From the IMG/VR virus record IMGVR_UViG_3300045988_054859: 61,533 nucleotides of DNA; one strand, 5' to 3'. Shown piece by piece: positions 1 to 58,574 of the stretch (position 1 is its first letter; the number at the start of each line of letters is the position of its first letter). This DNA is from a virus. A program made the translations under genes and the position numbers. The notes under the pieces are model-generated. The model was not told the origin of the DNA. It saw nothing but the letters and a program-made list of their open reading frames with translations, and ran no database searches.

Positions 1-119
1 CATTTATCCTGCGCCTCCTTTCGATTAAAATATTTACAGGGGAAACGCTAAATGTTCGTTTTTGGCGTCACGATTTTGCATCAATGACGCGAAACGGGTC
101 GCTTCGGGTTAAAAAAAAG
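1..119. repeat. Terminal direct repeat, copy 1 (identical to 61415..61533)
   Basis: Base-by-base identity read by eye from 'catttatcctgcgcc' to 'ggttaaaaaaaag'. Genes continue across the junction. Confidence 0.95.
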
Positions 120-1077: not shown

Positions 1078-1089
1078 TTGGAGGTCATC

Positions 1090-2682
1090 ATGGAGCAGTA
1101 TCTCATATATCTGCGCAAGTCTCGTTCCGACCTCGAGGCCGAAGCGCACGGCGAGGGCGAAACGCTCTCACGGCACGAGCACACTCTGCTCGAGCTGGCG
1201 AAAAGGCAGCATCTCAACGTGACCGATATTTACCGCGAGGTCGTCTCTGGTGACACCATCGCTGCCCGCCCAATGATGCAACGGGTTCTCTCCGAGGTTG
1301 AGCAGGGCGTCTGGTCCGGCGTCCTCGTCATGGAGGTCGAGCGTCTGGCGCGCGGCGACACCATCGACCAAGGCATCATCGCGCAGACATTCAAGTTTTC
1401 CGGGACAAAAATAATAACCCCTATAAAAACGTATGACCCTGACAACGAGTTCGACGAGGAGTATTTTGAGTTCGGCTTGTTTATGAGCCGCCGCGAGTAC
1501 AAAATCATCAACCGCCGGTTGCAGCGCGGTCGCCTCGCCTCCGCCAAAGAGGGCAAATGGCCGTCCGGTCTAGCTCCCTTTGGTTATCGTCGGGTAAAGC
1601 TCAAAAACGAAAAGGGCTGCTCGCTCGAGCCAATCGAGGAGCAGGCCGCAATAGTCCGTATGATTTTCGACCTGTACACGGTCGGCTTGCAGGACGAGGA
1701 TGGTTCCGCTCGCCCGCTGTCTCTGGGTTCAATCGCCACGAGGCTCAACGATATGCACATCCCGTCTCCGTCCGGTTCGCAATGGGCAAGAATCACCATT
1801 CGCGGAATCATCAAGAATCCGACGTACATCGGCATGGTGCGCTGGGGCAGCCGTGAGACGAAGAAGAAAGTAGTTGACGGCAAGGTCGTTTCTGTACGCG
1901 GTCCTGCCGACCCAGAGAAAGAGCGCATATTCAAAGGCATTCACCCTCCGCTCATTCCGAAAGAAACATTTGAGCTCGCAAACGATAAGCTCACCCGGAG
2001 TGAGAATACTTCCACGCACAAAGAAAAGGTTGTCCGGAATCCTCTGGCCGGTCTGCTCGTCTGCTCCGAGTGCGGCAGGCAGATGATGCGAATGATAAAC
2101 CCTGTCCATCCAGATATGCCGGTCGTGCGCTGTCCTCGTCGCGGCTGCCCGAATTGTTCGAGCTATCTTCCTATCGTCGAGGAGCGCGTCATACAGGGTC
2201 TCTCCAAGTGGATGAAAGGTTATGAGCTCGAGTGGAGCTCCGCTGCCGCGTCGTCCTCCGTGTCGTCGGTCGGCGTCCGGGAAAAAGCTCTCGCCAGCGC
2301 GGAGGCCGAGCTCCGCAAATTACAGCAGCAGCTCGAACGTACCCACGACTTCCTCGAGCAGGGCATCTACGACACAGACACCTTTCTGTCCCGCTCCCGA
2401 ATGCTCTCCGACAAAATCGCTGCCGCAAAGGATAGTGTCGCCCGCTGCTCCCGTGAGTTGACCGAGGAGAAGCTCCGGGAGACCAGCCGCCGTGACATCA
2501 TCCCTAAGGTTAAGAATTTGCTCGACGTGTACCCGCTGCTCGAAACGGCCGAGGAGAAAAACGCCCTCCTAAAAGAGGTGCTCGAAAAGGTCGTCTATCA
2601 GAAGCTAAACGAGAAGCGCAAAAAGAGTCCTGACGGCTTTACCATTGAGATATACCCGCGCATCCCAAAATCCGAAAAATGA
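1090..2682 (+). CDS. int: Large serine recombinase (integrase), 530 aa
   Basis: N-terminus is YLIYLRKSRSD...GDTIAARPMMQ...VLVMEVERLARG (resolvase catalytic domain). Next comes a recombinase domain (GLAPFGYRR), then a Cys-rich zinc ribbon (CSECG...CPRRGCPNC) and a coiled coil. GGAGG lies 6 nt before the ATG at 1090. Confidence 0.9.
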   Translation: MEQYLIYLRKSRSDLEAEAHGEGETLSRHEHTLLELAKRQHLNVTDIYREVVSGDTIAARPMMQRVLSEVEQGVWSGVLVMEVERLARGDTIDQGIIAQTFKFSGTKIITPIKTYDPDNEFDEEYFEFGLFMSRREYKIINRRLQRGRLASAKEGKWPSGLAPFGYRRVKLKNEKGCSLEPIEEQAAIVRMIFDLYTVGLQDEDGSARPLSLGSIATRLNDMHIPSPSGSQWARITIRGIIKNPTYIGMVRWGSRETKKKVVDGKVVSVRGPADPEKERIFKGIHPPLIPKETFELANDKLTRSENTSTHKEKVVRNPLAGLLVCSECGRQMMRMINPVHPDMPVVRCPRRGCPNCSSYLPIVEERVIQGLSKWMKGYELEWSSAAASSSVSSVGVREKALASAEAELRKLQQQLERTHDFLEQGIYDTDTFLSRSRMLSDKIAAAKDSVARCSRELTEEKLRETSRRDIIPKVKNLLDVYPLLETAEEKNALLKEVLEKVVYQKLNEKRKKSPDGFTIEIYPRIPKSEK

Positions 2683-3350: not shown

Positions 3351-3773
3351 ATGGAGCTCTACAAGTACACCGGCAGCGTAGCTGTCCTGACCGTTCGCTT
3401 CGGCAAGGCCGAGACCATCACCCTCTACGACAGCTATGACGACAGCGTCGCTCCGGTTCGTCTGGATGTTCGCGGGGCTCTGGCCGAATACATCAAGAAA
3501 ATCGAGGGCACAGACAGCGAGGAGCGGTACATGAATCTCGACTGGTACTACGACTTCAATATGCTGCTCCGGCGCATCGAGGTTCCGGGCGTCCCGTCCG
3601 AAAAGTTCCAGATGGCCGGTGTCCCGGCCAAGGTTCTGACGCAGACCCGCAGCAATCCGGACGAGCTCGTCTGCTTCGGTTGCCCCGACTTCATCAACAC
3701 GAGCAAGCCGGTCTCGATGGGTCAAGATGATTACCAGAACTTCCTCATGTGGAAGCGTGAGAACAGAGATTAA
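3351..3773 (+). CDS. Hypothetical protein (140 aa)
   Basis: AGGAGG RBS. No recognisable motif. Confidence 0.6.
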   Translation: MELYKYTGSVAVLTVRFGKAETITLYDSYDDSVAPVRLDVRGALAEYIKKIEGTDSEERYMNLDWYYDFNMLLRRIEVPGVPSEKFQMAGVPAKVLTQTRSNPDELVCFGCPDFINTSKPVSMGQDDYQNFLMWKRENRD

Positions 3774-3786
3774 GGAGGTGCAGACG

Positions 3787-3951
3787 ATGAAGCGTTACCA
3801 GATTTTGTACAACAAAGCCGGTTTCCCGCTCTGCGTTTGGAAGTCGTCTGAGGAGGAGGCCCGCAGCTTTGCAAACAGGTTTCGGGCTGCTGGTTACTCC
3901 GTCGATGTGTGGGAACACACGGCGACCGGCGCACGAAAAACCAACATCTAA
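3787..3951 (+). CDS. Hypothetical protein (54 aa)
   Basis: AAGGAGGTG lies 6 nt before the ATG (MKRYQILYNKAGFPL...). Confidence 0.55.
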   Translation: MKRYQILYNKAGFPLCVWKSSEEEARSFANRFRAAGYSVDVWEHTATGARKTNI

Positions 3952-9748: not shown

Positions 9749-10105
9749 TCATTCGACAATGGATTTGATTCCGCAGCGGGAAACGACTTCCCGCTGTGCG
9801 TGTTTGACCTTAGAGGCGTAGTCCAAGGCTGCGTGCATATCACCATTGCAGTGCGCGTCAGGGATGCGCTGAACTGCCTTTGCGGTGGCCTCGCCGAGGG
9901 CGATGGCGGCGAGAGAAGTTTCATAGATGCAGATTTGCAGCTTCTCTCTGCTCTTTTCGCGCTGGGCTTCAATGTTCTCGCGCTTCTTGGCTTCTTCGGT
10001 CCGCTTTCTCTCGTGCTGCTCGATTTTGCGCTCAATCAGCCAGACAGCAAATCCAAAGATTCCAGACGGCACTCCAACGGTGACGAGAATTTGCCATGTT
10101 TCCAC
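9749..10105 (-). CDS. N-terminally anchored coiled-coil membrane protein (118 aa, GTG start), lysis-associated
   Basis: GGAGGAGGTG RBS. TM segment WQILVTVGVPSGIFGFAVWLI is followed by a charged helix. Located between the endolysin and holin. Confidence 0.5.
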   Translation of the reverse strand: METWQILVTVGVPSGIFGFAVWLIERKIEQHERKRTEEAKKRENIEAQREKSREKLQICIYETSLAAIALGEATAKAVQRIPDAHCNGDMHAALDYASKVKHAQREVVSRCGIKSIVE

Positions 10106-10122
10106 TGGTATCACCTCCTCCC

Positions 10123-10782
10123 TCACAGATATTTGTCTGCGCCTGACAGGGCAGTCCAGCTCTTGGGGCCGCAAATGCCATCAGGGACGAGGCCGTGCTT
10201 ACGCTGGGCCGTCATCAGTGCCTTTGTGGTAGCCGGGCCAAAACTGCCGTCGTGCGGGATGCCGAGGAGCCGCTGCAGCATAACCGTAGCTGCGCGGTTA
10301 GCGGCTCCCTCGCAACCCTGCTCGATGGTCGGCAGGACAAACTTGTTGTAGGTGGTGCTGGGATACACGCCGGGCTGTACGCAAAGCCATGTAGCCTTGC
10401 CTCCGCGCGTGTCGGTGTGGACAATGGCGGCCTTGTCGTGCCAGTAGATGCCGACCGCGCCAAAGCCCTGCGCGGCCGCGATGATGCCGAGGGCGACGGG
10501 GTTGACGCTCCGGTCCTTCGTGCGCCAGTCGGCCGCAATGCCGTAGAGGTGGCGGCTTGTCCGGCTGCCGCCGACTTTCGGGTCTGCGTTGTGCTTCACG
10601 CACCGGTAGCCCGACGTAACCTTGATGGCCTTGCCGAGCTTGGTGCGGATGGTCTGCATCTTCTGGACGAGCTCCGGGTCAATCATCTGCGCCGTGCATC
10701 CGCACGGACAGGCGAACTCGTACCGCTCGAAGTCTGTGGTGATTTTCGTGTGGTCGTTCGGCTTAAAGGTAATTACGCTCAT
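10123..10782 (-). CDS. Endolysin: M15-type zinc peptidase domain plus a C-terminal PG_binding_1 domain (219 aa)
   Basis: Contains SGYRCVKHNADPKVGGSRTSRHLYGIAADW (H-x-D/H zinc peptidase pattern). The C-terminus LLGIPHDGSFGPATTKALMTAQRKHGLVPDGICGPKSW is a peptidoglycan-binding repeat. Confidence 0.8.
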   Translation of the reverse strand: MSVITFKPNDHTKITTDFERYEFACPCGCTAQMIDPELVQKMQTIRTKLGKAIKVTSGYRCVKHNADPKVGGSRTSRHLYGIAADWRTKDRSVNPVALGIIAAAQGFGAVGIYWHDKAAIVHTDTRGGKATWLCVQPGVYPSTTYNKFVLPTIEQGCEGAANRAATVMLQRLLGIPHDGSFGPATTKALMTAQRKHGLVPDGICGPKSWTALSGADKYL

Positions 10783-11427: not shown

Positions 11428-11898
11428 TTAGGCGGAGAGCTTGTTGATGATGGCCGTAATCTGCGCCTGCGCTGCGCTGAGAATGTCCCCGACTTTCTTT
11501 TCGAGGTCCTCGGGAAGGGCGCATCCGTAATAGATGGAGCCGATAACATTCGGGTCGGTCTCGCGCTTCGCCCACTGGCGCAGCGCATTGCAGTAGGTCG
11601 TCTGTTTGGTGACGAAGCTCTTGTATTCGCTGTACAGAGTAATAATGTCTGCCGCGCTGTACATAACGCACTCGCCGCCATCCGGGTGGTAAGGGTATTC
11701 GGACGCGCCCAACGTAATGGCCGCAAACATCGAGTCGATGTTCGTCTGGTCGTTGGGCATCAGCGAAAAGTGCTGCGTACCGTCGGACAACTCCACGTCA
11801 ATGCCAGCATAAATAAAGTTCTGGCAGGTTTCAGAAGCGTCGTCCGCCACCTTCTGTGCCAGAGTGGGAAGGTCGTTTTTCTTCCATTCAATAGCCAT
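11428..11898 (-). CDS. Hypothetical tail-fibre-associated protein (156 aa)
   Basis: AAGGAGG RBS. Sits immediately downstream of the DGR target gene. No firm motif. Confidence 0.5.
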   Translation of the reverse strand: MAIEWKKNDLPTLAQKVADDASETCQNFIYAGIDVELSDGTQHFSLMPNDQTNIDSMFAAITLGASEYPYHPDGGECVMYSAADIITLYSEYKSFVTKQTTYCNALRQWAKRETDPNVIGSIYYGCALPEDLEKKVGDILSAAQAQITAIINKLSA

Positions 11899-11908
11899 AC
11901 TGTCCTCC

Positions 11909-13168
11909 TTACTGGAATGCACCGCTGACGGCTTCGATGTAGCCGCCCTCGCCGGATTCGCCGCGCTCCACGCTGACGCGGAAGTTAAACGCCGCGCCGT
12001 TGGTGGCGGTCTTATTCTCAAAGACGATGTTCACGCCTTTTTTTACCTCGGTCGTGGCATCCTGCCAGACCGGGGAGCTGTCGAGTGCGTTGTTGGTCAC
12101 TTCGGCTTTGAACTTCGCATCATCGGGGATGGAGCCGGTCACCTGAAGCACGGCAACGGTAATGTCGCCCTCAACGGCCAACGGTTCAGCCAGCGTCACG
12201 CTTGCGGCGTGGACGGCCTTGGTAAAGGTCGCGGACGTGCTGACGGTTTCCTTGCCGTCGCTCACCTCAACGGTGATGGTGTGGTTGCCGTTCAGGATTT
12301 TCTGGAATCCGGCAGCGCTGGCCGTCTGCTCAAAGGTCAGGGCCGTGCCGCTGGCAACGCCGGTGCGGGTCTTGGCGGTCTTTCCGTCCAGCTTTTCGGT
12401 GACGGTCAAGGTGTCGCCGTCGGCATCCCTGACGGTGTACTTCCACGCAAAGGCCGCGTTCTTCCGCCCCAGAGCTGCGCCGTCCGTGCTGACGGTAGGT
12501 GCAGTGTTGACACTGACCGTGCCGTCGTCAGAGACCACGAGTGTAGAGGGAAGAATGAAAGCGGGGCGAACACCATAGGAGAAGTAGCACCAGTGGCCGT
12601 CGTCGGAGCCATCGGTGCTGACGTACCAGACGCCGCTGCCATCGCTGGTGTACGGAGAGCGCAGCCACCAAATGGCAGCGGAGCTGCCATTGTATGCAAT
12701 ACGCTTGCTGTTACCGCTGGAGCTGTTGCCAAAGTATGCCAGCCTCACACCGTCCTTCGGGAAATAGCCGTTGTCGCTGGTCGTCCAACCAACCTCATAA
12801 CCAGACAGCAGGAACACTTTGGTGCTCAGGCCGTTGGAGCCGGTGGCAAGGCTGCCGCCGGAACCAGTGCCGTTCTGGTACGGGATTTTCACCTGCTTAA
12901 TAGCCGCCCGGATGTTGCTGTCGATGAGGTTGTAGAACGTTCCGTTCAGGTATGTGTGGATGCTGGAATCCTTGTAGGAGTTATTGTTGCCGAACGTGGA
13001 CGTGGTGTAGATGTCCTTCATCAGCAGCCACGTTCCATTGCAACTCGAATCATAGGTGCTGGTATTCGGGTTGCCCTGCTGCACAACAATAAAATCTTTG
13101 GACGCGCCGTTGACTTTGATTTTGACAATGCTGCCAACGGCTTTCGTGCCCAGTTTTACGTTTGCCAT
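11909..13168 (-). CDS. DGR target protein (receptor-binding/tail-fibre-like, 419 aa) with an internal variable region
   Basis: AAGGAGG lies 6 nt before the ATG at 13168. VR encodes AAIWWLRSPYTSDGSGVWYVSTDGSDDGHWCYFSYGVRPAF (C-type-lectin-like DGR VR pattern WLRS...GVRP). About 216 aa of beta-rich sequence follow. Confidence 0.8.
   Translation of the reverse strand: MANVKLGTKAVGSIVKIKVNGASKDFIVVQQGNPNTSTYDSSCNGTWLLMKDIYTTSTFGNNNSYKDSSIHTYLNGTFYNLIDSNIRAAIKQVKIPYQNGTGSGGSLATGSNGLSTKVFLLSGYEVGWTTSDNGYFPKDGVRLAYFGNSSSGNSKRIAYNGSSAAIWWLRSPYTSDGSGVWYVSTDGSDDGHWCYFSYGVRPAFILPSTLVVSDDGTVSVNTAPTVSTDGAALGRKNAAFAWKYTVRDADGDTLTVTEKLDGKTAKTRTGVASGTALTFEQTASAAGFQKILNGNHTITVEVSDGKETVSTSATFTKAVHAASVTLAEPLAVEGDITVAVLQVTGSIPDDAKFKAEVTNNALDSSPVWQDATTEVKKGVNIVFENKTATNGAAFNFRVSVERGESGEGGYIEAVSGAFQ
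12561..12680 (-). repeat. DGR variable region (VR)
   Basis: Gapless 120-bp alignment to 14590..14709. All 19 mismatches fall where TR has A on the coding strand. Confidence 0.9.
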
Positions 13169-13188
13169 TGTTACCTCCTTGTTTTCGT

Positions 13189-14418
13189 TCAGGCCCACGG
13201 CATGATCTCCGCGGGCCGCGTGTTCTGCGATACAGAGAGGGACAGGGCTTTGTGCTGCTTCTTGTAGATGCAGCGGCATTGCCTCGCCCGCCGTCTGTCA
13301 CGCGCGAGTTTGTTCGAGTTGATTTTTCGATGGATAGGGATTTTACAGTCAAGCAATTTTTCGAGCCGGTCAGCGTACTTGCGGCGTAAAGAGTAAGTAT
13401 CACCATGGGCGGCATGGGCATCCCACGCATCAAAGCTCCGCAGGATTTCCTGCTTGGTCACTTCGCCTGCGGGGTATGCCGTCTCCCAATATCTGATCTT
13501 GTTCTTCATCCGCTTGGAGCTATCCCGGCGCAGCTTTTGGATGACCGCGCCGGTGTCGGTCAGGTAGCTATGGAATCCCAGAAAATCAATACCGTTCCGC
13601 AGCGGGAAAATGGCGGTTTTCTGGTTCAGCTCAAGGCCGTAACTGTCCATGAGCGCCCGAACATCCCGGAGAATGCACTGCAATTTCTTCTTGTCCGAAC
13701 AGATGATGTAGAAATCATCCATGTATCGGCCATAGTATTTGATGCGGTACTTTTCTTTGATGATGTGGTCGAACTCGTCCAAAAACATGAGGGCGAAAAG
13801 CTGGCTCGTCTGGTAGCCCAGCGGCAAGCCGTCCTCCATCACGTCGATGTAGATGCAAAGCAGCTCATAGACACGCGGGTCAACGCCGCGCTTGTCCAGC
13901 ACGGCTTTGAGCTTGCGTTTTAGCTTCCGGTGGTCGATGCTGGCGAAGAAATGCCGCACGTCGCCTTTCAGCACCCAGCCGTCCGCGCCGTGGCCCTCAC
14001 GGCGGTAATAGTCCACCATGTGGGTTTTCAGGCGCATCAGGCCGTCGTCTGTGCCTTTTCCGGTCTGGCTGGCGTGGCTGTCCCGGATAAAGCTCTTTGT
14101 CAGGGCATCATACAGGATGTTATCGACCAGAGCGTGCAGCACCACCTTGTCCACAAATGCGGGGGCGTGTACCATGCGGCGCTTCGGCTCGTAGACGGAA
14201 AAGACCTCAAACTTACTTGGCACATAGCGTATCTGCTGCCGAATGCTCCCGTCTGGCTGCCGCACATTGCAGACAGCCAGCTTACGGGAGAGCTTTTCCG
14301 TGCAGGCCAGCGCCTGCGCCTCGTACTCGATTGTTTTGCTTTTACTGCGCTTTCCCTTCCGGGCTTCAAGGTAGGCTTTGTAAAGTACCTCAAAGCTGCA
14401 CAGTTCTTCGTATGCCAA
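13189..14418 (-). CDS. DGR-type reverse transcriptase (409 aa)
   Basis: Contains the RT motifs PKRRMVHAPAFVDKVVLHAL, IRDSHASQTGKGT, VLKGDVRHFFASIDH, GLPLGYQTSQLFALMFL and YGRYMDDFYII. Adjacent to the TR. Confidence 0.9.
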   Translation of the reverse strand: MAYEELCSFEVLYKAYLEARKGKRSKSKTIEYEAQALACTEKLSRKLAVCNVRQPDGSIRQQIRYVPSKFEVFSVYEPKRRMVHAPAFVDKVVLHALVDNILYDALTKSFIRDSHASQTGKGTDDGLMRLKTHMVDYYRREGHGADGWVLKGDVRHFFASIDHRKLKRKLKAVLDKRGVDPRVYELLCIYIDVMEDGLPLGYQTSQLFALMFLDEFDHIIKEKYRIKYYGRYMDDFYIICSDKKKLQCILRDVRALMDSYGLELNQKTAIFPLRNGIDFLGFHSYLTDTGAVIQKLRRDSSKRMKNKIRYWETAYPAGEVTKQEILRSFDAWDAHAAHGDTYSLRRKYADRLEKLLDCKIPIHRKINSNKLARDRRRARQCRCIYKKQHKALSLSVSQNTRPAEIMPWA

Positions 14419-14589
14419 AATGACCCTCCGCTGGTTCGCGTTACGGTAGTGGGCTGCATCCGGCAGGGATGGCCCACCTCAGCGGGATGTATTTATCACT
14501 TGCCTGCATCGGCAAGCGACAGGATGTGGTTTCCTTTGATGGGCGCACTGCTTTCAGCTTATGCCTACTCGTCACACGGTTCCATCAGA

Positions 14590-14709
14590 GCGGGGCGAAC
14601 ACCATAGGAGTTGTTGTACCAGTTGTTGTTGTTGGAGCCATCGGTGTTGACGTTCCAGACGTTGTTGTTATTGTTGGTGTTCGGAGAGCGCAGCCACCAA
14701 ATGGCAGCG
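14590..14709 (-). repeat. DGR template repeat (TR)
   Basis: Non-coding and AAC-rich. In the VR frame it translates as AAIWWLRSPNTNNNNNVWNVNTDGSNNNNWYNNSYGVRP. It lies 50 nt after the Avd-like gene and 170 nt before the RT. Confidence 0.9.
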
Positions 14710-14759
14710 TCAGACAAACAAACCGCACCCTTTATGCAAAGCGGTTGCCCGCTGTGCGT

Positions 14760-15335
14760 TTACGGTTCCGGGTAAAGGACGGCTTTCAGGGCGGCAGCCT
14801 GTTCGGTCAGCCGTTTCCGTTCCGCTTCTGCCCGGAGTTTTTCGGCACGTCCGCGTTCCGACGTGAGCCACTTCATCGCCGGGTATTTTACGTCCGTGAC
14901 CTTCTTTGTCCAGATACCGGCTTTCTTCGCACTGATGATACCTTCCTCCGTGCAGATGGTCAGGTATTCCAGCAGCAGAGAGCAGCCGTCCACAACTGCG
15001 CCGATCTTCTCAACGCGCTTGTCGTAGTCGGTCTGGAAATTGACGTTGTTCGCCGCGTGTGCATCCAGCAGGATTTGCCGGGCAGTCAGCCGGATGCCCT
15101 CACCGTACAGACGGAAAGTGCTTTTGGAAAAGCCCTCCCTGTCCCGTGTGTCGAGTGCATGGACGGCAGTGCCACACACCTTCTGGATGTCGCGCACATC
15201 TTCGAGCGCCGCGACTTTCTGGATGATCTTCCGGGCATCGCTCCGGCTGATGTCATCGGTGACGATGCGGGTTGCCCTCTGAGTGTAGCGCAACAGCTCC
15301 CGCGCATTCGCGCCGACCTTGAATGTTTCAGCCAT
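14760..15335 (-). CDS. avd: Avd-like accessory protein candidate (191 aa, basic, helical)
   Basis: Positioned directly upstream of TR, as in avd-TR-RT cassettes. Helical and basic sequence with a C-terminal coiled coil. Longer than classical Avd proteins. Start is coupled (TGATG) to the upstream gene. Confidence 0.45.
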   Translation of the reverse strand: MAETFKVGANARELLRYTQRATRIVTDDISRSDARKIIQKVAALEDVRDIQKVCGTAVHALDTRDREGFSKSTFRLYGEGIRLTARQILLDAHAANNVNFQTDYDKRVEKIGAVVDGCSLLLEYLTICTEEGIISAKKAGIWTKKVTDVKYPAMKWLTSERGRAEKLRAEAERKRLTEQAAALKAVLYPEP

Positions 15336-15721
15336 CAGAACTCCACCCTCGCCTGTTCTGCGTTCCACACGCCGGTGACGGTCAGGCCGTCAAGGCTGCT
15401 GAACGTGGCGGAAAAAGGATTTTTCGTCACGTTTGTGCCGAACTTCAGCTCAATGGCCTTGATGCTGGCGTTCATAGCTGCCACACTGGCACGGATGTCG
15501 CTGTGGGTGTTCTCCGCACCGTTGTGGTTGTCAACGGCCGCGCTGATGCGCTGGTCGGTTTCAGCCTTGGTGTATGCGTCCACCGCCGGACGCTGCGATT
15601 CGGTCAAATGGCCGTCAGCATCCAGCGTGGCAATGCCGCCCGGCACGCCGATCTGGTTAGTGCGGACAACATCTTCATCCGGCGCCTTGCCGGGGCCTGC
15701 GTTAAAAGAACCGTATGCCAT
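15335..15721 (-). CDS. Tail-fibre-like protein (128 aa)
   Basis: Contains GVPGGIATLDADGHL, a motif common near phage fibre N-termini. Confidence 0.45.
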   Translation of the reverse strand: MAYGSFNAGPGKAPDEDVVRTNQIGVPGGIATLDADGHLTESQRPAVDAYTKAETDQRISAAVDNHNGAENTHSDIRASVAAMNASIKAIELKFGTNVTKNPFSATFSSLDGLTVTGVWNAEQARVEF

Positions 15722-16171
15722 TTAGGTTCCCCCTTCCTGTGCAGCCGTGTATTTCACGGTGCTTGTAATGTGATACTGTGCAGAAATTTTCTCGGTCGGA
15801 GCTTTGGCGGCCCTCAGCCGCAGCTTTCCTTCGAGGCTTTCGGTCGCAATAAAACCCACCGCACCCGCCACATCGTAAAATTCCGGCAGTACCGTAACAT
15901 CCACAATGTCGGTAGCCAACAGGCCCGCAATGGGGATGTCACAATAAAAATAGCCGGGGGAGGAATCATCCTCGCCCCAGCCATCGACCGGAATCGTAAA
16001 AGACACCGCAGCCGTGACATCCTGCTTTTCGTGCAGGATGTCATCGGTTTCCTCGAATCCGTTTGCCGTTGCTTCGGAAAGGTCTCCGAGTGCGGTGTTG
16101 CACTGCTTGATGTGGCTGCAAAGCGCGGCAAGCCCTGTGCCCAAAAGCGTTTTGACCTTCGCTTTTGCCAT
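15722..16171 (-). CDS. Hypothetical tail-associated protein (149 aa)
   Basis: Lies within the fibre module. No recognisable motif. Confidence 0.5.
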   Translation of the reverse strand: MAKAKVKTLLGTGLAALCSHIKQCNTALGDLSEATANGFEETDDILHEKQDVTAAVSFTIPVDGWGEDDSSPGYFYCDIPIAGLLATDIVDVTVLPEFYDVAGAVGFIATESLEGKLRLRAAKAPTEKISAQYHITSTVKYTAAQEGGT

Positions 16172-16191
16172 AGAGCTTACCTCCTCATGTC

Positions 16192-17067
16192 TTAGTCAGC
16201 GTCAGCCAGCAGAGCGGCGATCTCCTCTGCGGAGAAGTCCTCCACGTCCTCGTCGTGCAGAACATTCTCCGGCTCGGTGTACACGACGACTTCCTTGCCG
16301 TCGATGTTCACATTGCCGTTGGTGGAGCTGGCGGCAGTCTTGGTTGCGCCCTCAGAGACACCGGCCAGCTTTTCGCCCTCGGCATCGCTCATCAGGCGCT
16401 TGCCAGCCTCGGCGCCCACGAAGTCCGCAGGCTTCTTGCCGCTGTCGGTCAGATTGCCCTCGCCATCCAGCGCAGCAAAGTTGCCGGTGGTGGCACCGGT
16501 GGCCTTATCGGCCTTGCCGGAGATGTCCACTTCCTCAGGGGTGGGAACATACAGACCATCGTCCTTCAGAACCAGGGCGTTGCCGGCAGCAGCGGAAACA
16601 TTGACCTTGACATCCACCTCATAACCAGCGATGGTAACGGTGGTGGATGCGTCCTTGCCAGTGACCTTGGCCTTATAGGTATCGACCAGAGCGGCCATGC
16701 TCAAGAAGGAGTAGGTGCAGGAGTCCGGGTTCTCGCCCTTGACGGCCAGCACCATGACAGGCTTGCCGTCCAGCTTGGGGTCGGTAGCGCCGGGGTAGGT
16801 CGCAGCATCGAACTTGAACTTGGCCACGAAGGTGGTCTTGGTCTGGTCGAGGAACAGCTCAGAGGGGAAGTCAACGGAGAAAGCAGCAGTGCCGCTCTTG
16901 TCGGTAGAGGTGTAGAAGTTCACGGTATTGCCGTCAACGCCAAGAGACTTGATAGCAGCGTTAGCTGCGGCCTGCACAGGGGTAAAGGCGCCCTTCTTAA
17001 CGAAGGTCTTCTTGATCTCGGCGGTCAGGTTGCGGATGGTGGTCTTGGTAGAAATCTGCTTAGACAT
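16192..17067 (-). CDS. Hypothetical tail-fibre-module protein (291 aa)
   Basis: Beta-rich and Thr/Ala/Gly-rich. Located in the fibre module. Confidence 0.5.
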   Translation of the reverse strand: MSKQISTKTTIRNLTAEIKKTFVKKGAFTPVQAAANAAIKSLGVDGNTVNFYTSTDKSGTAAFSVDFPSELFLDQTKTTFVAKFKFDAATYPGATDPKLDGKPVMVLAVKGENPDSCTYSFLSMAALVDTYKAKVTGKDASTTVTIAGYEVDVKVNVSAAAGNALVLKDDGLYVPTPEEVDISGKADKATGATTGNFAALDGEGNLTDSGKKPADFVGAEAGKRLMSDAEGEKLAGVSEGATKTAASSTNGNVNIDGKEVVVYTEPENVLHDEDVEDFSAEEIAALLADAD

Positions 17068-17085
17068 AGTAGTGTCCTCCTAAAA

Positions 17086-18213
17086 TTATTTCAGCATATC
17101 AACGATTTCCTGCTGCGTTTCTTCCTCGTTCAGCAGGTCTTCACTCGTCATAACGGTTTCTTTGCGGACAGTCAGCGCGTTTGCGCTGTCGAAGTCAAGG
17201 CCTTCGCCGATGCGGACGGCAATAGCGCCGCTTGCGTCGCGCTTCAAGCCCTGACCGATGCTTACGCTGCCGGTTTCACCCGAACCACCTCCTTTCCCGA
17301 ACAGGGTTACGGTCGCCTGAATATCTGCTTCCGGGATGCGCTGAGCGAAAAATCTGATGAAACCATCATGCGTTTCGCACCCGTTCAGGACGCCCGCTTT
17401 GGTCGTAGTATAGAAGCTGCCAGGAGATACAACGCCAACGGGTACAAGCTCGCTGGTGCTGTCCGACAGTTCTGCGTCATAAATGCACTGGTAGTAATCC
17501 ATACCGCCAGCGTTTTCGTAATCATCCTCGCTGCGGGCGGGCTTCCACCCGTCAGCTGCAAGGGTGAGTTTGTAGGAGCCATAGTAGCCGCCGCCTGTGC
17601 CGCCGTCCACCTGCTCCTTGATAAGAGCCTTTACCTGTTCTTCGTTCAGGATTTCCCCGGATTCAGACAGGTTCTTCACGGCTGCGCTGACCGCTGCCGT
17701 GATGGTCGCTGCATGGGCATCAGCGGCGGCGTTGTGCTTCTCAATTTCGGCCTTGACCAGCTTCATCAAAGCCTGCATCTGCGGGCTGAGGGCAATTTCG
17801 ATTTTTGCTTTGTTCGAGATTGCAATAAGGGCAGCAATCTCAATTTCAAAATCAGCGTTCACGCTGGATGCAGGGACTTCGATTCCACGTTCATCCTGCA
17901 TGATGAACAGCAGCACTTCGGCATCATCATTCAGGCGGCCATATACGCCGATCTGGTGCATGATGTAAGTGCTTTCTGCTCCGGTAATCTGGATGCTGAC
18001 TTTCCGGGCCGTTTCCTCTCCGTCCTTTACGGTGTCAATCGCAAGGATGGTCAGTTCGTGCGTTTCGCCGCTGACGGTCGTTTCTGCCGACAAGTCGGTT
18101 TCAACGATGCCGGTGCCGCTCACGGCACGGGTGATGGTGAGCGCGCCGCCGGAGAGGGATTCCGACAGGAGCGCGGCACCGGCAGTTGTATAACTGGATT
18201 TTTCCCAGCTCAT
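17086..18213 (-). CDS. Tail fibre protein (375 aa)
   Basis: The N-terminus YTTAGAALLSESLSGGALTITRAVSGTG resembles the tail-collar fibre N-domain. Follows the baseplate genes. Confidence 0.55.
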   Translation of the reverse strand: MSWEKSSYTTAGAALLSESLSGGALTITRAVSGTGIVETDLSAETTVSGETHELTILAIDTVKDGEETARKVSIQITGAESTYIMHQIGVYGRLNDDAEVLLFIMQDERGIEVPASSVNADFEIEIAALIAISNKAKIEIALSPQMQALMKLVKAEIEKHNAAADAHAATITAAVSAAVKNLSESGEILNEEQVKALIKEQVDGGTGGGYYGSYKLTLAADGWKPARSEDDYENAGGMDYYQCIYDAELSDSTSELVPVGVVSPGSFYTTTKAGVLNGCETHDGFIRFFAQRIPEADIQATVTLFGKGGGSGETGSVSIGQGLKRDASGAIAVRIGEGLDFDSANALTVRKETVMTSEDLLNEEETQQEIVDMLK

Positions 18214-18968
18214 GTTGTCTGTCCTCCAATCTTGATGGTTACGGTTTCGTGCGTGTGCGCAAGCCCGCCGGTGGCGTATGCCTGCGCGGTGATGTTTTTC
18301 GGGTGGATGGCTCCGGGCAGTTCAACGGTCGTCTGCATCCGCGCTGCGCTCATAGCACCGGCAACATAGCCACGAGCCGTGACGGCGCGGGGTTTGATGC
18401 TTCCGGGCAGCCGAACGGTGCAAAAGGCAGCCATTCCGCAGGGTGCGGCGGCGACGTAGGCTGGCTGTAAATCCGGAATATATGCAAGAACAAGCGAAAG
18501 CGAAAGATGAGCCGGAATCTTGCGCTTCAAGCATTCCATGACGTCGCTCGATAAGAATGTGGAGTTATCATTTGGGAAGAGCTTCACATAAATTCTGCTA
18601 TTTTTGAATTCAACAGAGGACGAGGCTCCGGTATATCCAAAAACAATATCTTTTATCTCCTGAGAGCCGATGTGGTTGCCGCCGATGAAGTACAAGGCGA
18701 CGAGCTTGCGCCGCGCCTCGAGGGTGCGCTTCTGGTTCAGAGGGATACCGAGGAAGGTTTCCATCTGCGCCAGCGTATCCGTGTCCATCAGGGATACGAA
18801 GTTGTTGTTGACAACAGCGTCCACGCCGTCCTCGATTTCGTCCAGCCCGCCTCCGGCTGCGCGCCAGATAGCGTCCATTTCGAAAACATCCCGGTAGAAC
18901 ACCGGGTAGAATGTTTTCAGCTCCTCGTATGCGCTGGGGAATCCGTTAGGATACAGGGTTGGTTTCAC
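18210..18968 (-). CDS. Baseplate/tail protein, XkdU/DUF2313-like (252 aa)
   Basis: Positioned after the baseplate J gene. The pattern FYPVFYRD...LAQMETFLGIP...RRKLVA fits this family. Confidence 0.5.
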   Translation of the reverse strand: MKPTLYPNGFPSAYEELKTFYPVFYRDVFEMDAIWRAAGGGLDEIEDGVDAVVNNNFVSLMDTDTLAQMETFLGIPLNQKRTLEARRKLVALYFIGGNHIGSQEIKDIVFGYTGASSSVEFKNSRIYVKLFPNDNSTFLSSDVMECLKRKIPAHLSLSLVLAYIPDLQPAYVAAAPCGMAAFCTVRLPGSIKPRAVTARGYVAGAMSAARMQTTVELPGAIHPKNITAQAYATGGLAHTHETVTIKIGGQTT

Positions 18969-31608: not shown

Positions 31609-32685
31609 TTAGATAGATGCCAGACCGGTCACAATGGCCGTTGCGTCCAGCTCCTCAACCAGCGTATCGAAGTCGAAATGCACGACATAGAAACGCTTGT
31701 CCTGATAGATGGCCTCCGGGCCCTCGGTGGTCTTGCGGATGACAACGCCGTAGGAGTTGACGACGACCAGATTCTTCGGGTCGGTCAGCATAATAACGTC
31801 GTCGGGCAGGGCCGGGACCTCGATGACGGGAACGCTGGCGGGATTCTCGACGCGCTTGTCGGTGATGATGCCGCCTGCGGTGACTGCCTGATTCAGGATG
31901 TAGCGCTCCCACTCCTGACGGCGGTGGGGGGACATCAGCCAGCGGAGAGTGCCGTTGTTGAACTTGTCGGGAACTGCGCGCAGGCCCTTGTAGAACACAT
32001 CCAGAACCATTGCGCCGGAGTTGATGCCGGACACATCGACAACGTGGCCGCCCTCCTTGAACTGCTTGACCCAGCCGTCGTTCACCTTGAGGAAGTCGGC
32101 GTCATCGACAGTACCCAGCTCGGTGGCCTCGCCTGCGTCAAATGCGCCTGCGGTGTGGGCTGCGGTGTACTGGTAGACCTTCTTGTTGTATGCGACGAGG
32201 TCGCCAATAGCGTAGGTCTCAGAGGAGCTGAACTCCTTGACCTTGGCATACCGTTCGTCGCCGTTCAGGCACAGGTCCTCGCGGTCGCAGCCAATCTGAC
32301 GGGTCATCAGGTTGGTGACGATGGTCTCGTAGTTGGAGCCCTCGATGTTTTCGCGCAGGGTCTCCTCAGTGATTTCCCACGGCAGACGGACAGGGGTGCA
32401 AGCGTATTCCAGCTTGCCATGCTTCACGCCGGAGCGGTAGCCGTCGTCGGTGTCCTCGGTCTTTTTGCGCAGCAGACGGCGGCCGACGCCAATCTTGTCG
32501 ATTTCGCCGGTCTTTGCGGAGCGCAGCTCGTGGCGGACGAGGCCGCTCAGCGGAGTGGCCTCAAAGGTCTGCTGAATGAACTTCTTCGCCTGCTCCGGTT
32601 TCAGTGCGCCGCCAGCGGCCAGACCGGCGGTGGTGATGGTCTGGCCTGCTGCGTTCACGATTGCCTTATTGCTTCTCATGGTCAT
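31609..32685 (-). CDS. Major capsid protein (HK97-fold type, 358 aa)
   Basis: Size, position after the protease/scaffold gene, and general HK97-like pattern. Confidence 0.75.
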   Translation of the reverse strand: MTMRSNKAIVNAAGQTITTAGLAAGGALKPEQAKKFIQQTFEATPLSGLVRHELRSAKTGEIDKIGVGRRLLRKKTEDTDDGYRSGVKHGKLEYACTPVRLPWEITEETLRENIEGSNYETIVTNLMTRQIGCDREDLCLNGDERYAKVKEFSSSETYAIGDLVAYNKKVYQYTAAHTAGAFDAGEATELGTVDDADFLKVNDGWVKQFKEGGHVVDVSGINSGAMVLDVFYKGLRAVPDKFNNGTLRWLMSPHRRQEWERYILNQAVTAGGIITDKRVENPASVPVIEVPALPDDVIMLTDPKNLVVVNSYGVVIRKTTEGPEAIYQDKRFYVVHFDFDTLVEELDATAIVTGLASI

Positions 32686-54354: not shown

Positions 54355-57300
54355 TCAAGAGTAGATGACCTTGCTGCCCTCCGCCGTCTTTACAACGTCA
54401 ACGGCCTGCGGGAAACGGGCTTTCATCTCCGGGTCGTGAGTGATAGCCATAATCTTGAGCGAGGAATACCGTTTCTGGATGGCCTCGAGGGCGTCGCAGT
54501 AGGCCTGTACACCCTTGTCGTCGAGGAACGGCGGCTCGTCGATAAACAGGAATCCGAGCTGCACTCCTGCGGTGCTGCTCTTGAGCTCTGCCAGCGCAAG
54601 GATGACCGAGAGGGCCGCCTTAACGCGCTCGCCGCCGGAACGGCTCATATAGGGCAGAGCTCCGGTCGCCGCGTCGTTTACGATGATGTCCAGCGCGGTG
54701 ACCTCTTTCTTGCTGTTGCTCTTGAGGGTCTTTTCCATGCGCATCTCAATGCTCATGTGGCCGCCTGACATCTGGCTGATGATGCTCGTCGCGGTCGCCT
54801 CGAACAGCGGGACGATGCTGCGGACGATGTTATGCGGAATACCGTCCTGAGAGAAAGCCCGCTTGAGCTCCTCATAGCCCGCTGCAAGCTGGCCCTGTTC
54901 CGTCGCCTGACGGCGAAGGACTTCGAGCTTTGCCTCTGCCGTCTCGATTTCTTCCATCTGCCTGCGGCTGTGTCCGGCCTGCTGGTCCAGCTCTTCAATG
55001 CGGATATTGTCCACCGTGAGGGCTGCATCCGCCTCCGCGTACTGCTCCTTGAGTTCGTCAACATCAGCCTGCGCCTTTGCGAGGGTCAGAATCTCCGCAT
55101 TGATGCCATCAATCGCCGTCCGGGTCTTTTCTGCGTAGGTCAGGAGCTCCGTGAGGCGGGTCTGCGCTGCGCTCTTTTTAGCCTCCGCTGCCGGGAGCAG
55201 CTTTTCCAGCTCGATGTATTTCTTAACGTCCGAAAGCTGCGCCTCAATGCTGGCGAGCTCCGCTGCGTTCTGCCGGAGCTTTTTCAGCTCGTCCTCAACG
55301 ACGAAACGGTCTGCCTCGAGGCTCTCGATATTGGCCGGAATGGTTTCAAGCTCCTCGTCGATGGCCTTGATGCGCTCTTTAACTTCCGCGAGGCGTTCTT
55401 TCTGCGCCGCCAGCTTTGCGAACCGCTCCGAGGCTTTCCGCAGGTCTGCAACGAGGAAACGCTGGGCCTGCAAATCCTTGCGGCAGTTGAGGCCCGTTGC
55501 CTTTTTCTTTGCGGCCTGATACTCAGCGTCGAGCTGCTCGGCGCGCTCCTCAGCCTGCTGCCGGTAGGTTTCCAGTTCCGTCTCGGCCGCAGGCAGTTTC
55601 TTTTTCGCCTCCACTGCATCCTGCAGGAAACGGCATTCCGGGTTCTCGACCGGGCAGCCGCAGGTCTCGAGCATGATGGCCCGGGAGCGGATATGTGTGA
55701 CCTCGTTCTCTTTTATGTCGAGCCAAGACTGTATCCGCGCGGTTTCTGCGTTCTTGGTTTGGAGCAGCTTCATGGCCTCTTGGTCTGCTGCGAGATACTG
55801 CTCGTCCTGTTCTTCCAGCGCGGTGAGCCGTTCGCTCGCTCCTGCGAGGTCTGCCGCTTTCCGCTCGAGCTCGTCATAGTCCGCGAGGGCCTGCTCATAG
55901 CTCCAACACGTTGCCTGTGCAGAAAGTTTTTCGGCCTCGAGACTGCCTTTCTTTTTCCGCTGGGCAGAGAGCGCGGCCATAACGTCCCGCAGCTTTTCTT
56001 CCTTGGGCTGAATCAGGGCCGCCGTTCCCAGCAGCTCCTCCCGCCGTGCGGAAAGTTTTCCGTAACTCTGGCTGCCTGCCTCTACCTCCTCGCGCTTATC
56101 GAGGAGAGCCTGCGCATCGGAAATCTGCGCTCTGCAAACAGCCTGCGCGCTGGCGTTCGCGTTCTTCTCCGCAATCCAAGAGCCGAGCTCGCTGGCGAGT
56201 TTTTCCGACCGCTTCTGTGCCTGCTTGGCAATGTCGAGCTTTGTCTGCGCCTCGCTCATGGCCTTTGTGTGGATGGCCCTGTCTGCTACCGCGCTGGCCT
56301 TTTCGACGGCCGTCTTGTTCATGGCCGCCTCGACCGTTGCCTTGTCCGGCATCGTCCGCCCGGTCTCCTCCTGCAAATCCGCGACGCGCCGGAGCTCCCG
56401 GTTGGCGTCTGCTGCCCGGTTGGCCGCCATGCTCTCCATGCGGTCATAAATGCCGAGGCCGAGGATGTTGCCGAGAATTGCCATGCGGTCCGCCTTGTCG
56501 GCCTGCAAAAAGAGGCCGTACTGGTCCTGCATGATAAGGCCGGTCGCCTTGAGCGTCAGGCTGTCCATGCCGATGGTGTTCTCGATGATGGCCTGCGTAT
56601 CGCGGTATTTCTCCGCGCTGCGGTTCTGCCAGCTCTCGTCCACATACTCGGAGAGATTCAGCGTCGCCTTGCCGCTCTTTGTGCGGGTGCGTGTCACGCG
56701 ATACAGCTTGGTGCCGAGGTAAAACGTGAACTTGATGGAACCGCTGCGGGCATCCGGGTCGTTGCAAATCCAGCCAGTGAGGTCGCCCTCCCGGGGCTCC
56801 TCGAAAAGGGCGTCCAGCATGGCGTCCATGAACAGGCTGGACTTGCCTGCGCCGTTCTCGCCGTTGATGGTTGCAAAGGAAATGCCGTCGTAGCTGAACA
56901 GTTCGTCGCGGTAGTTGCGGTAGTTCTTGACCTCTATTTCCACCGGCATAAACAAGCCGGTCGGGGTCTCAAGGCGGCCTTTTTCCATTGCCTCCGAGAT
57001 AATCGGGCGGGCCAGCTCGATTATGCGCTGGGCGTCCTCCGGGCTCTTTTCCTTTTCGGCGAGGTACTCGGCGAGGTTCTGCTCCGGGCTGTTGTCGCCA
57101 TGGAGCTCGTCGCGGTTCACGCTTGTCGTGATTTCCTCCGGCGTGATTTCGGAGACATAGAACACACCACCGTCATAGAGCCTTTTCTCAAGGACAGCTT
57201 TGTTGAAAGCCTTGTTTGTTTCGTCCGAACAGGTGTAGAGAACGCGGACGATTTTTCCCTTGAGGCGGTCAGGTACAACGACCCGCTCCGCGCTCAACAT

Positions 57301-58191
57301 TGTGCAGACATCGTCCTCGTTGAGGCGGATGGTCTCGAACTCCCGGTAGGGCGTTTCGATGTACTCACTCCATGCCTCCCCGTCGTCGTCGATGTCGTGG
57401 ATGTAAAAGCCTCGCGGCTGGCCCTCGTCGTTGAAGTTGAGGCCTGTAATGCTGCCGCAGTAGAACACCGCACGGCCTGCCTCCGGGAGCTGCTGCGGCC
57501 GGTGGATGTGGCCGAGTGCTACGAGGTCAAAGTCTGCAGCTTTCAGGGTGTCTGGGTAGATGACGGGCTCAAACTGTGCAAATAGCGCGGTCTGGCCGCT
57601 CTCCATGTTGCATCCCGGGACAGTGAAGTGCGTAGACAGGATGCTCGTCACACCGGGCTCGCACTGTGCTTTCAGGCCGAGAACGACCTTTGCCAGCTCG
57701 TCCGTGAACACCTGCGTTTCCTCCTCTCGAGAGAGACCCGGGTGCGCTGCCCGGTGTACGCCACGGTCAAAGCCCGGAATACACGCCACATCTACGCGCT
57801 GCCCGTGGTAGGTGTGGATGTGGATCACCTCCGGCTCCGTTACGACGCTGACCGAATCATCGCCGTAAAAAGCCGTCGTCAGCATCTCGAACTGCTCCTC
57901 GCTGTCGTGGTTCGGAGTGCCACGCAACACGACGGTCGGGGCCACGTTGGAAAGCCGCCGGATGTGGTCTATGGCTGTCCGGCTCTCGCGGAGACCTCTG
58001 TCCGACCATACGCGGGCCTGATGGAAAATGTCGCCAGAGACGACGATAAGGTCCGGCCGGTGCTCCTCCGCGTACATCGCCTGAAAATCAAGGCAGCGGC
58101 AGATGTCCTGAAAACGGGCATTCTGTCCGCCGACCTCTGGCCCGGGGAAACTGCCGATGTGCCAGTCTCCGGTGTGCAATACTTTCAGCAT
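54355..58191 (-). CDS. Fused SbcD(Mre11)-SbcC(Rad50)-like nuclease-ATPase (1278 aa)
   Basis: The N-terminus has LHTGDWHIG...VSGDIFH...GTPNHD...GHIH (calcineurin-like phosphoesterase). Next come Walker A NGENGAGKSS, about 600 aa of coiled coil, the signature SGGERV and Walker B FLFIDEP. Confidence 0.75.
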   Translation of the reverse strand: MLKVLHTGDWHIGSFPGPEVGGQNARFQDICRCLDFQAMYAEEHRPDLIVVSGDIFHQARVWSDRGLRESRTAIDHIRRLSNVAPTVVLRGTPNHDSEEQFEMLTTAFYGDDSVSVVTEPEVIHIHTYHGQRVDVACIPGFDRGVHRAAHPGLSREEETQVFTDELAKVVLGLKAQCEPGVTSILSTHFTVPGCNMESGQTALFAQFEPVIYPDTLKAADFDLVALGHIHRPQQLPEAGRAVFYCGSITGLNFNDEGQPRGFYIHDIDDDGEAWSEYIETPYREFETIRLNEDDVCTMLSAERVVVPDRLKGKIVRVLYTCSDETNKAFNKAVLEKRLYDGGVFYVSEITPEEITTSVNRDELHGDNSPEQNLAEYLAEKEKSPEDAQRIIELARPIISEAMEKGRLETPTGLFMPVEIEVKNYRNYRDELFSYDGISFATINGENGAGKSSLFMDAMLDALFEEPREGDLTGWICNDPDARSGSIKFTFYLGTKLYRVTRTRTKSGKATLNLSEYVDESWQNRSAEKYRDTQAIIENTIGMDSLTLKATGLIMQDQYGLFLQADKADRMAILGNILGLGIYDRMESMAANRAADANRELRRVADLQEETGRTMPDKATVEAAMNKTAVEKASAVADRAIHTKAMSEAQTKLDIAKQAQKRSEKLASELGSWIAEKNANASAQAVCRAQISDAQALLDKREEVEAGSQSYGKLSARREELLGTAALIQPKEEKLRDVMAALSAQRKKKGSLEAEKLSAQATCWSYEQALADYDELERKAADLAGASERLTALEEQDEQYLAADQEAMKLLQTKNAETARIQSWLDIKENEVTHIRSRAIMLETCGCPVENPECRFLQDAVEAKKKLPAAETELETYRQQAEERAEQLDAEYQAAKKKATGLNCRKDLQAQRFLVADLRKASERFAKLAAQKERLAEVKERIKAIDEELETIPANIESLEADRFVVEDELKKLRQNAAELASIEAQLSDVKKYIELEKLLPAAEAKKSAAQTRLTELLTYAEKTRTAIDGINAEILTLAKAQADVDELKEQYAEADAALTVDNIRIEELDQQAGHSRRQMEEIETAEAKLEVLRRQATEQGQLAAGYEELKRAFSQDGIPHNIVRSIVPLFEATATSIISQMSGGHMSIEMRMEKTLKSNSKKEVTALDIIVNDAATGALPYMSRSGGERVKAALSVILALAELKSSTAGVQLGFLFIDEPPFLDDKGVQAYCDALEAIQKRYSSLKIMAITHDPEMKARFPQAVDVVKTAEGSKVIYS

Positions 58192-58574
58192 CACATATCC
58201 TCCCTGAGCAGCTCTTTGATGATGTCGTCGAGCTTGCCGCGCCGCGCTGCATCCGCACGAGACTTCGCGCACTGAATATTCCTCATTTCATCTTCGGTCG
58301 GAACCTGCGCGTAGACCTTGTGGCCAGAGCTGATGCTGAACGAAATGTAGTCCAGCGCGAGCTTTGCGAGCTCGGTGCGGTCCGGGCTGCGGAACGTCCC
58401 GATAGGGCAGCAGGTGCGCTCGGCGTTGGTGTAACGTCCGCCGCCGGAAATAAAGATGGTCGCCATGAGCTGTGCCTCGTGAGGGATTGTTTCAGTCTCC
58501 TTGACCTCAAACATTGCCACGTTGTCCGAATTGACGGCGACCATGCCGTCCTGCGAAAGAATCATCATAATCAT
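58191..58574 (-). CDS. Hypothetical protein (127 aa)
   Basis: ATGA coupling on both sides. Confidence 0.5.
   Translation of the reverse strand: MIMMILSQDGMVAVNSDNVAMFEVKETETIPHEAQLMATIFISGGGRYTNAERTCCPIGTFRSPDRTELAKLALDYISFSISSGHKVYAQVPTEDEMRNIQCAKSRADAARRGKLDDIIKELLREDM

Follow-up and report, generated by a model that had tools for sequence, protein, structure and literature searches.

A diversity-generating retroelement (DGR) in the Faecalibacterium phage FP_Toutatis (NC_047915) was reported by Cornuault et al. in 2018, who reported no Avd homolog for it (PMC5883640). For the Faecalibacterium phage Lelie (PP479942), a 2024 paper described a DGR that has two variable repeats (VRs) and whose targets contain DUF6273 (PMC11792537). 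A 2024 preprint described the Toutatisvirus cassette, made up of an Avd gene, a template repeat (TR), and the gene for a reverse transcriptase (RT), as cargo of a hypervariable hotspot, with one repeat (VR1) in a "Hoc-like" or tentaclin target and another (VR2) in a Toutatisvirus core gene (bioRxiv 10.1101/2024.10.15.618418). The stretch of DNA analyzed here, IMG/VR record IMGVR_UViG_3300045988_054859 (61,533 nt, called the window throughout), carries a cassette of the same kind on its minus strand between positions 11909 and 15335. We are highly confident that this cassette, carried by a temperate Faecalibacterium-type myovirus, is a complete, genuine, and probably active DGR whose mutagenic homing is specific to adenines. 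As an element it is already known, a near-identical cassette having been published for Toutatis, Lelie, and Toutatisvirus. Only the mosaic transfer of a block of fiber genes plus DGR and the insertion-bearing Avd protein go beyond the literature.

As marks of a DGR we took a TR/VR pair of about 60-150 nt with differences (almost) only at TR adenines, a nearby RT with the motif 4 signature [I/L]GxxxSQ and a YxDD motif, a VR within a coding target, TR adenines at codon positions 1 and 2 from which no stop can be reached, an invariant TR paired with hypervariable VRs, an Avd gene beside the TR, an initiation of mutagenic homing sequence and its counterpart (IMH/IMH*) at the 3' end of the repeats together with a DNA hairpin or cruciform downstream of the VR as in BPP-1, and a structured spacer between TR and RT. 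On the minus strand the window presents, in order, an Avd-like gene (15335..14760), the TR, a 171-nt spacer, the RT gene (14418..13189), and the target gene (13168..11909), and the Avd, RT, and target open reading frames (ORFs) are all intact. The earlier note on this DNA had given the span of the unit as 11909-15335. Its upper end stands, 15335 being the start codon of the Avd-like gene, and what we correct is the start of the target, most likely the ATG at 13168, which is preceded by AAGGAGG; the alternative upstream ATG at 13279 is disfavored by the overlap with the RT gene that it would create. FP_Toutatis shows the same Avd-TR-RT-target order downstream of its tail fiber, and its target likewise combines DUF6273 and Ig-like domains. 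The window and Toutatis are identical in the TR (120/120) and in the Avd protein (100%), 98.8% identical in the RT, and 89% identical in both the target and the tail fiber. Their VRs, with 15 changed A sites in Toutatis and 19 in the window, carry different combinations of changes, and there is no nucleotide similarity between the two phages in the lysis, baseplate, head, and early regions. Lelie shares about 94% nucleotide identity over the block that holds the cassette, has an identical TR, and carries VR1 in a large DUF6273 target. Compared with the DGR of BPP-1, the window cassette shares adenine-specific TR/VR differences, the closest solved RT (8ub7), an Avd-family protein, a structured spacer, and a GC-rich 3' end common to both repeats. 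It differs in gene order (avd-TR-RT-target versus target-avd-TR-RT in BPP-1), in its target (DUF6273 plus Ig-like domains with the VR in the N-terminal domain versus the Mtd trimer with a C-terminal VR), in an Avd protein with a 43-amino-acid insertion and a C-terminal tail, in having no detected hairpin 3' of the VR, and in low RT identity (E value 7.7e-25).

The TR (14709..14590) and the VR (12680..12561) align on the minus strand without gaps over 120 nt, and blastn lengthens the match by one base to 121 nt. All 19 mismatches lie opposite a TR adenine, so that 19 of the 34 TR adenines are altered (13 A>G, 5 A>T, and 1 A>C). Homology stops right behind CGCCCCGC; the GC-rich 3' end common to TR and VR is GTTCGCCCCGC, and the homology ends one nucleotide beyond it. 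Read in the frame of the target, the TR encodes AAIWWLRSPNTNNNNNVWNVNTDGSNNNNWYNNSYGVRP and the VR encodes AAIWWLRSPYTSDGSGVWYVSTDGSDDGHWCYFSYGVRP, with 15 differing codons. These results reproduce exactly what the earlier note had read from the letters, namely a 120-bp ungapped alignment with 19 mismatches only at TR adenines, the two peptides, the 15 diversified codons, and an end of homology directly after a GC-rich block. Every one of the 34 TR adenines falls at codon position 1 or 2 of the target frame, as do all 19 mismatches. The AAC-rich TR offers 20 mutable codons, 14 of which are AAY, and adenine substitution leads to a stop codon in none of the 20, which gives a theoretical VR repertoire of 1.2e20 proteins. 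Of the 419 target residues, the VR encodes 164-202, which lie at the C-terminal end of DUF6273, the N-terminal domain, and not at the C terminus of the protein. A 50-amino-acid ORF over the TR (14717..14565, minus strand) is the TR itself and should not be called a gene. Its Toutatis counterpart, gp80, is annotated in RefSeq as a "DUF6273 domain-containing protein."

Related cassettes were collected with the RT as probe, which gave 80 IMG/VR loci and 76 GTDB genome loci in addition to Toutatis and Lelie. From these we counted 57 TR copies (56 close relatives plus the window) and 54 VRs (53 relatives plus the window). The TR is identical in 53 of the 57 copies, and all 54 VRs are distinct. Changes in the 54 VRs number 866 at the 34 A sites and 19 at the 86 non-A sites, with A retained in 53% of the A-site cells. 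In the VR, A sites have a per-site heterozygosity of 0.536 and non-A sites one of 0.008, and the values for the two 120-nt stretches downstream of the VR are 0.075 and 0.067. The non-A sites of the VR are thus more uniform than their surroundings, as expected if a constant TR repeatedly overwrites the VR. Direct evidence for TR-to-VR transfer comes from one relative (L086), whose TR is substituted at four non-A positions, with each of these substitutions found again in the VR of the same locus. The earlier note had proposed a test for hypervariability confined to the TR-adenine positions, and such a pattern is seen across related genomes. Given these counts and the lack of any A-masked TR match other than the VR in the whole 61.5-kb window, the TR/VR pattern is not due to chance. 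The outcomes at the A sites of the 54 genomes are skewed (G 577, T 240, C 49), and C is nearly missing at codon position 2. Either misincorporation bias of the RT or selection on the protein may account for this skew. In one IMG/VR contig (L020), the copy at the TR position (3710-3829) has six A-site changes and resembles a hybrid of TR and VR, most probably a chimera of both repeats made in assembly, the alternative being a mutated TR.

The RT gene (13189..14418, minus strand) encodes 409 amino acids, begins 171 nt downstream of the TR with a TTG that follows GGAGGG, and contains YMDD and the motif 4 sequence LGYQTSQLFA. The three motifs listed in the earlier note (GLPLGYQTSQ, SHASQTGKGT, and YMDDF) are all present in this ORF. 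The protein matches Pfam RVT_1 (E value 4.8e-19), and its best match in the PDB is 8ub7, the RT of the BPP-1 DGR (bRT; E value 7.7e-25), in an alignment that runs through PLGYQTSQLFA/PIGSLTSQLFA and YMDD. About 70 relatives of this RT carry their own adenine-specific TR/VR pair, the close ones keeping the avd-TR-RT-target order. Down to about 25% RT identity, such a pair accompanies every relative with enough flanking sequence.

Directly upstream of the TR lies the Avd-like gene (14760..15335, minus strand), whose 191-amino-acid product matches PHROG 3206, "Avd protein of DGR" (E value 5.5e-36), and is 100% identical to gp79 of FP_Toutatis, a protein that RefSeq, following PHROGs, also labels Avd. 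In about 100 related loci, a homolog occupies the same place immediately upstream of the TR. Distant relatives, found at the same position upstream of related RTs, are shorter (122-159 amino acids), and five of eight of these short proteins match Pfam bAvd (PF22296) over its full length with E values of 1e-7 to 3e-4. Aligned with them, the window protein consists of the core plus an insertion of about 43 amino acids after helix 1 (approximately residues 27-69) and a charged C-terminal extension of about 30 amino acids. The insertion and extension are common to relatives with an RT identity of at least about 54% and absent from more distant ones. From these alignments, the protein appears to be an Avd four-helix-bundle core that carries an insertion and an extension. 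These additions also explain why no Avd homolog of Toutatis was reported by Cornuault et al. For annotation, the 191-amino-acid protein is best entered as an Avd with an insertion.

The spacer between TR and RT (14419..14589, minus strand) is a candidate for the DGR "Sp" RNA. Our drawing of its structure comprises six short helices that group into P1-P4 in the window: P1 (14586-14582 with 14542-14538), which begins 4 nt past the end of the TR/VR homology, P2 (14565-14563 with 14558-14556), P3 (14534-14532 with 14524-14522), and P4 (14519-14511 with 14504-14496), all on the minus strand. P4 is followed by a conserved segment, GAUAAAYACA. The drawing was evaluated on a structure-blind MAFFT alignment of 22 spacers from loci whose DGR RTs are about 40-100% identical to that of the window. 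As drawn, 92.2% of the cells pair, and sliding the 3' partners by 1-3 columns lowers this share to 34-49%. Compensatory changes occur in 13 of 21 pairs (59 cells), and the covariation score is 0.345 versus 0.137 in shuffled alignments, with none of 500 shuffles reaching 0.345. The structure was drawn by eye from the very sequences that were tested, which biases the test in its favor, and the slid and shuffled controls serve as the safeguard. RNAalifold recovered merely 6-7 pairs from the spacer alignments because the MAFFT alignment is gappy within the hairpins, which is why drawing by hand and counting of pairs were used. In the window's own group of four sequences, P1 is shifted in the alignment and yet forms. 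It reads GAUGG/CCAUC in the window and GGCUG/CAGCC in another locus (L059), with three compensatory pairs between both. In Rfam, the spacer has a weak full-length match to RF03077 (RT-2), which is among the RT-associated motifs that Weinberg et al. described in 2017 (PMC5737381). Its 21.2 bits stay below the gathering score of 40 (E value 0.073 with 5.5 kb searched and 0.0066 with 0.5 kb). At the gathering threshold, Rfam gave no match in 16 related loci. The location is the one expected of a DGR "Sp" RNA, and the pairing pattern indicates that the spacer encodes a conserved structured RNA.

By analogy with BPP-1, priming and homing in the window would proceed as follows. An RNA across the TR and the structured spacer would be transcribed, and the RT, together with the Avd-like protein, would copy the TR into complementary DNA (cDNA) with misincorporation opposite template adenines. 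The cDNA would then replace the VR in the target, one way from TR to VR, guided by the GC-rich 3' end that both repeats share. As an outcome, one surface region of the DUF6273 domain would be randomized at as many as 20 codons, of which 14 are AAY, with about 1e20 possible proteins and no stops, while the TR stays constant. The earlier note had read the locus as an instance of DGR mutagenic homing, and this reading gains support from the TR/VR pair, the PDB match of the RT, the Avd gene, and the hypervariability in the population. A scan for promoters and terminators gave nothing over background. One sigma-70-like site, TGGACA-16-TAAAAT (14885-14912, minus strand), matches the consensus at 10 of 12 positions and falls within the Avd gene, in its 3' part, some 175 nt upstream of the TR. 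Known from this consensus match only, in a scan that showed no overall enrichment, it could drive a transcript of TR and spacer.

The target gene (11909..13168, minus strand) encodes 419 amino acids. DUF6273 is found by Pfam at residues 44-208 (E value 1.3e-37) along with a weak Big_9 match, and the protein also matches PHROG 10993, "Hoc-like head decoration" (E value 5e-144). An N-terminal DUF6273 domain with the VR, followed by Ig-like domains and encoded by a gut-phage DGR cassette, is the arrangement of the tentaclins of Baykov et al. 2023 (PMC10743442). Membership of the window target in that family is judged by Pfam domains only, and the tentaclin phages carry two targets versus one in the window. 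The sole homolog of the DUF6273 domain with a solved structure is 9qa6_A, the N-terminal domain of an IgA protease (E value 6e-11). Residues 63-264 of 9qa6_A align with target residues of about 26-209, and the WWLRSP...GVRPA core that frames the VR is kept. A C-type-lectin-like fold for DUF6273 rests on published AlphaFold models (PMC10743442; bioRxiv 10.1101/2024.10.15.618418), and on the strength of this literature the domain would be a C-type-lectin-like ligand binder. In the protein database, at least 8000 separate 90%-identity clusters match the target, one of which has 29,878 members, and the differences among clusters apparently lie largely in the VR. The hypervariability of the VR thereby splits one target protein into thousands of database clusters.

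Two readings that would deny a DGR altogether carry next to no weight. If the RT were of the retron, group II intron, or defense (DRT/Abi) type and merely adjoined the repeats, then its NCBIfam matches, which are to group II, Drt3a, and retron models, would be the evidence. These matches are all sub-threshold by a wide margin (89 versus 300 bits for group II, 68 versus 200, and 48 versus 235) and reflect the shared RT fold. In the PDB, RTs of other classes (Cas6-RT-Cas1, group II, retron, and Drt3a) match at E values of 2e-8 or worse, so that the BPP-1 RT ranks first among solved relatives, and the "...SQLFA" signature of motif 4 is present. Rfam found no intron RNA domains and no retron msr/msd, and the relatives have adenine-specific TR/VR pairs of their own. 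Class membership was judged from motifs, profile and PDB matches, and the relatives' TR/VR pairs. The earlier note had named a grouping of the RT with retrons or group II introns as the result that would speak against a DGR, and the BPP-1 match and the TR/VR pairs of the relatives answer that question in favor of a DGR. On cut-offs, PDB ranking, and those pairs we reject a retron, group II, or DRT identity as practically inconceivable. We give just as little credence to an ordinary duplication whose two copies became different through point mutation with positive selection, or else through recombination. Nothing speaks for this idea beyond the existence of two repeats, and it is refuted by the confinement of all 19 mismatches to one base of one copy and by the 866 A-site versus 19 non-A changes across the 54 VRs next to a constant TR; moreover, a DGR-clade RT and an Avd gene accompany the repeats. 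Several observations weigh against a genuine and active element. The population evidence is a comparison between genomes and not one of reads from the window genome, which bears on current activity. Reads of induced Lelie cultures showed no excess variation in the VRs (PMC11792537). Unlike in BPP-1, no stable hairpin or cruciform was found when the 120 nt that follow the VR were examined (z 0.28). For the Avd-like protein of the window, neither Pfam nor NCBIfam nor the sequences of the PDB gave a match, and a sequence and profile search of the PDB gave nothing significant, the best Avd-family-like entry being 2gsc (E value 0.63). We attribute the missing Pfam match to the insertion and extension, which hide the core. 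The bAvd matches of the short relatives all fall under the curated 40-bit cut-off. A single-sequence AlphaFold2 (AF2) model of the Avd-like protein is all-helical at low confidence (predicted local distance difference test score, pLDDT, 47.2). For the target, AF2 with 35 database homologs gave a pLDDT of 44.6, with values below 50 throughout the DUF6273 domain, and the beta-strand C-terminal half of the protein appears in this low-confidence model only. The poor model and the shallow alignment behind it are explained by the homologs themselves, since the best 120 listed in the database are all VR variants with 91-97% identity to the target. The first three of these observations also speak for a cassette that was formerly active in the lineage and is now silent or defective in this genome, its VR a frozen variant. 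Such a fossil is unlikely in our estimation. Its three ORFs (RT, Avd, and target) are intact and evidently conserved (Avd 100% and RT 98.8% identical to Toutatis), the TR of the window is the population consensus, and among cassettes with 97-99% identical RTs every VR is different (54 of 54). That all VRs differ among near-identical cassettes places diversification far above background divergence and indicates that it was recent.

For a DGR that is probably active, the next question is what its diversification achieves. Altered binding by the virion, whether to a host receptor or to another ligand, would be the general consequence. Receptor tropism switching is plausible and is the interpretation that we put first. 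The target closes the cluster of tail fiber genes and moves with it, which favors a role in host recognition. An alternative that we regard as possible, if on balance doubtful, takes the target for a capsid decoration or an environment-binding adhesin of the Hoc-like or tentaclin type, one that binds mucus or another ligand in the gut, for example, and not for the tail protein that binds the host receptor, with the DGR tuning adherence and not tropism. The match to PHROG 10993 agrees with this alternative, as does the combination of DUF6273 with Ig-like domains known from tentaclins, which have been proposed to bind intestinal or immune cells (PMC10743442). That the only solved homolog of the domain belongs to a secreted protease of gut bacteria fits as well, and so does the position of the VR in the N-terminal domain, given that the literature proposes the C-terminal Ig domain as the virion anchor. 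On the other hand, the "Hoc-like" label stems from the Ig-like repeats and is no evidence of a capsid location, and the target, as the last gene of the fiber cluster, travels with the fiber-module genes between backbones, as expected of a host-range module. In a more specific version, the DUF6273 domain would recognize not a bacterial receptor but a ligand of the host mucosa, for instance secretory IgA or mucin glycans, which would turn the block into a portable, self-diversifying module for gut adherence. The IgA protease homolog, the Hoc-like stalk of Ig domains, and the separate second DUF6273 target of Toutatis-type phages may hint at such a function, which we consider quite improbable.

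The resemblance to Toutatis and Lelie ends sharply at the edges of a mosaic block. Delimited by blastn, this block (11850..18465) has about 93% nucleotide identity with Toutatisvirus and contains the DGR, its target, and four fiber-module genes just upstream of the cassette (15335-15721, 15722-16171, 16192-17067, and 17086-18213, all on the minus strand). The product of 17086..18213 matches PHROG 27381, "tail fiber protein" (E value 9e-194), and in Toutatis the counterpart bears a tail fiber annotation. The other three belong to PHROGs with no assigned function and are hypothetical in Toutatis and Lelie. Outside 11850-18465, megablast found no match between the window and Toutatis or Lelie. 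Protein identity to Toutatis is 89-100% inside the block and drops just outside it to 31% for a P2-I-like protein and 22% for baseplate J. The best named relative of the major capsid protein is Dulem virus 37 (56.6%), and a phage-wide tblastn with this protein had no Toutatis among the matches listed. When the downstream flanks of 76 related loci were typed, 48 were of the Toutatis type and 13 of the window type, and 15 were too short or not typed. Both RT subtypes (97-99% and about 86-87% identical) are found in both flank contexts. Similarity that is limited to the block and flanks that are unrelated mark the fiber-module genes and the DGR as a mosaic block shared by two backbones. The evolutionary interest is modest: a 6.6-kb block, about 93% identical, sits in two otherwise unrelated Faecalibacterium myovirus backbones that both recur in public viromes (48 and 13 contigs).

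A second target, such as Toutatisvirus and Lelie have with their VR2, is absent from the window. In Lelie, VR2 lies in orf58, which encodes a 215-amino-acid DUF6273 protein in the early region (VR2 at 10452-10555 and the gene at 10025-10672 of locus L161), and the window has neither similarity to this early region nor an orf58 homolog. An A-masked TR scan, blastn-short, and tblastn all failed to find a second VR or target in the window, and tblastn with Lelie orf58 and a six-frame search with the DUF6273 hidden Markov model gave no homolog and no second DUF6273 domain. One weak 18-nt match (32332-32349) lies within the major capsid gene and was dismissed as chance. Judging from the genome comparisons, the DGR travels with its target and the neighboring fiber genes as one exchangeable block, leaving behind the second target encoded by the Toutatisvirus backbone, and the window cassette serves a single VR.

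An exact 119-bp direct terminal repeat (window 1-119 and 61415-61533) indicates that the window is a phage genome in full, assembled as a circle, with 61,414 unique bp. A GenBank virome fragment, MT836754, spans the terminal junction. Genes for a tail sheath, tape measure, portal, terminase, baseplate wedge, endolysin, and large serine integrase are encoded in the window. The tail sheath, baseplate, and integrase bear out the temperate myovirus lifestyle and morphology that had been proposed for this DNA. The large serine integrase (534 amino acids; 1078-2682, plus strand) lies near the genome end. A 1305-amino-acid ORF (54355-58272, minus strand) matches both SbcD-like and SbcC-like PHROGs and resembles a fused nuclease.

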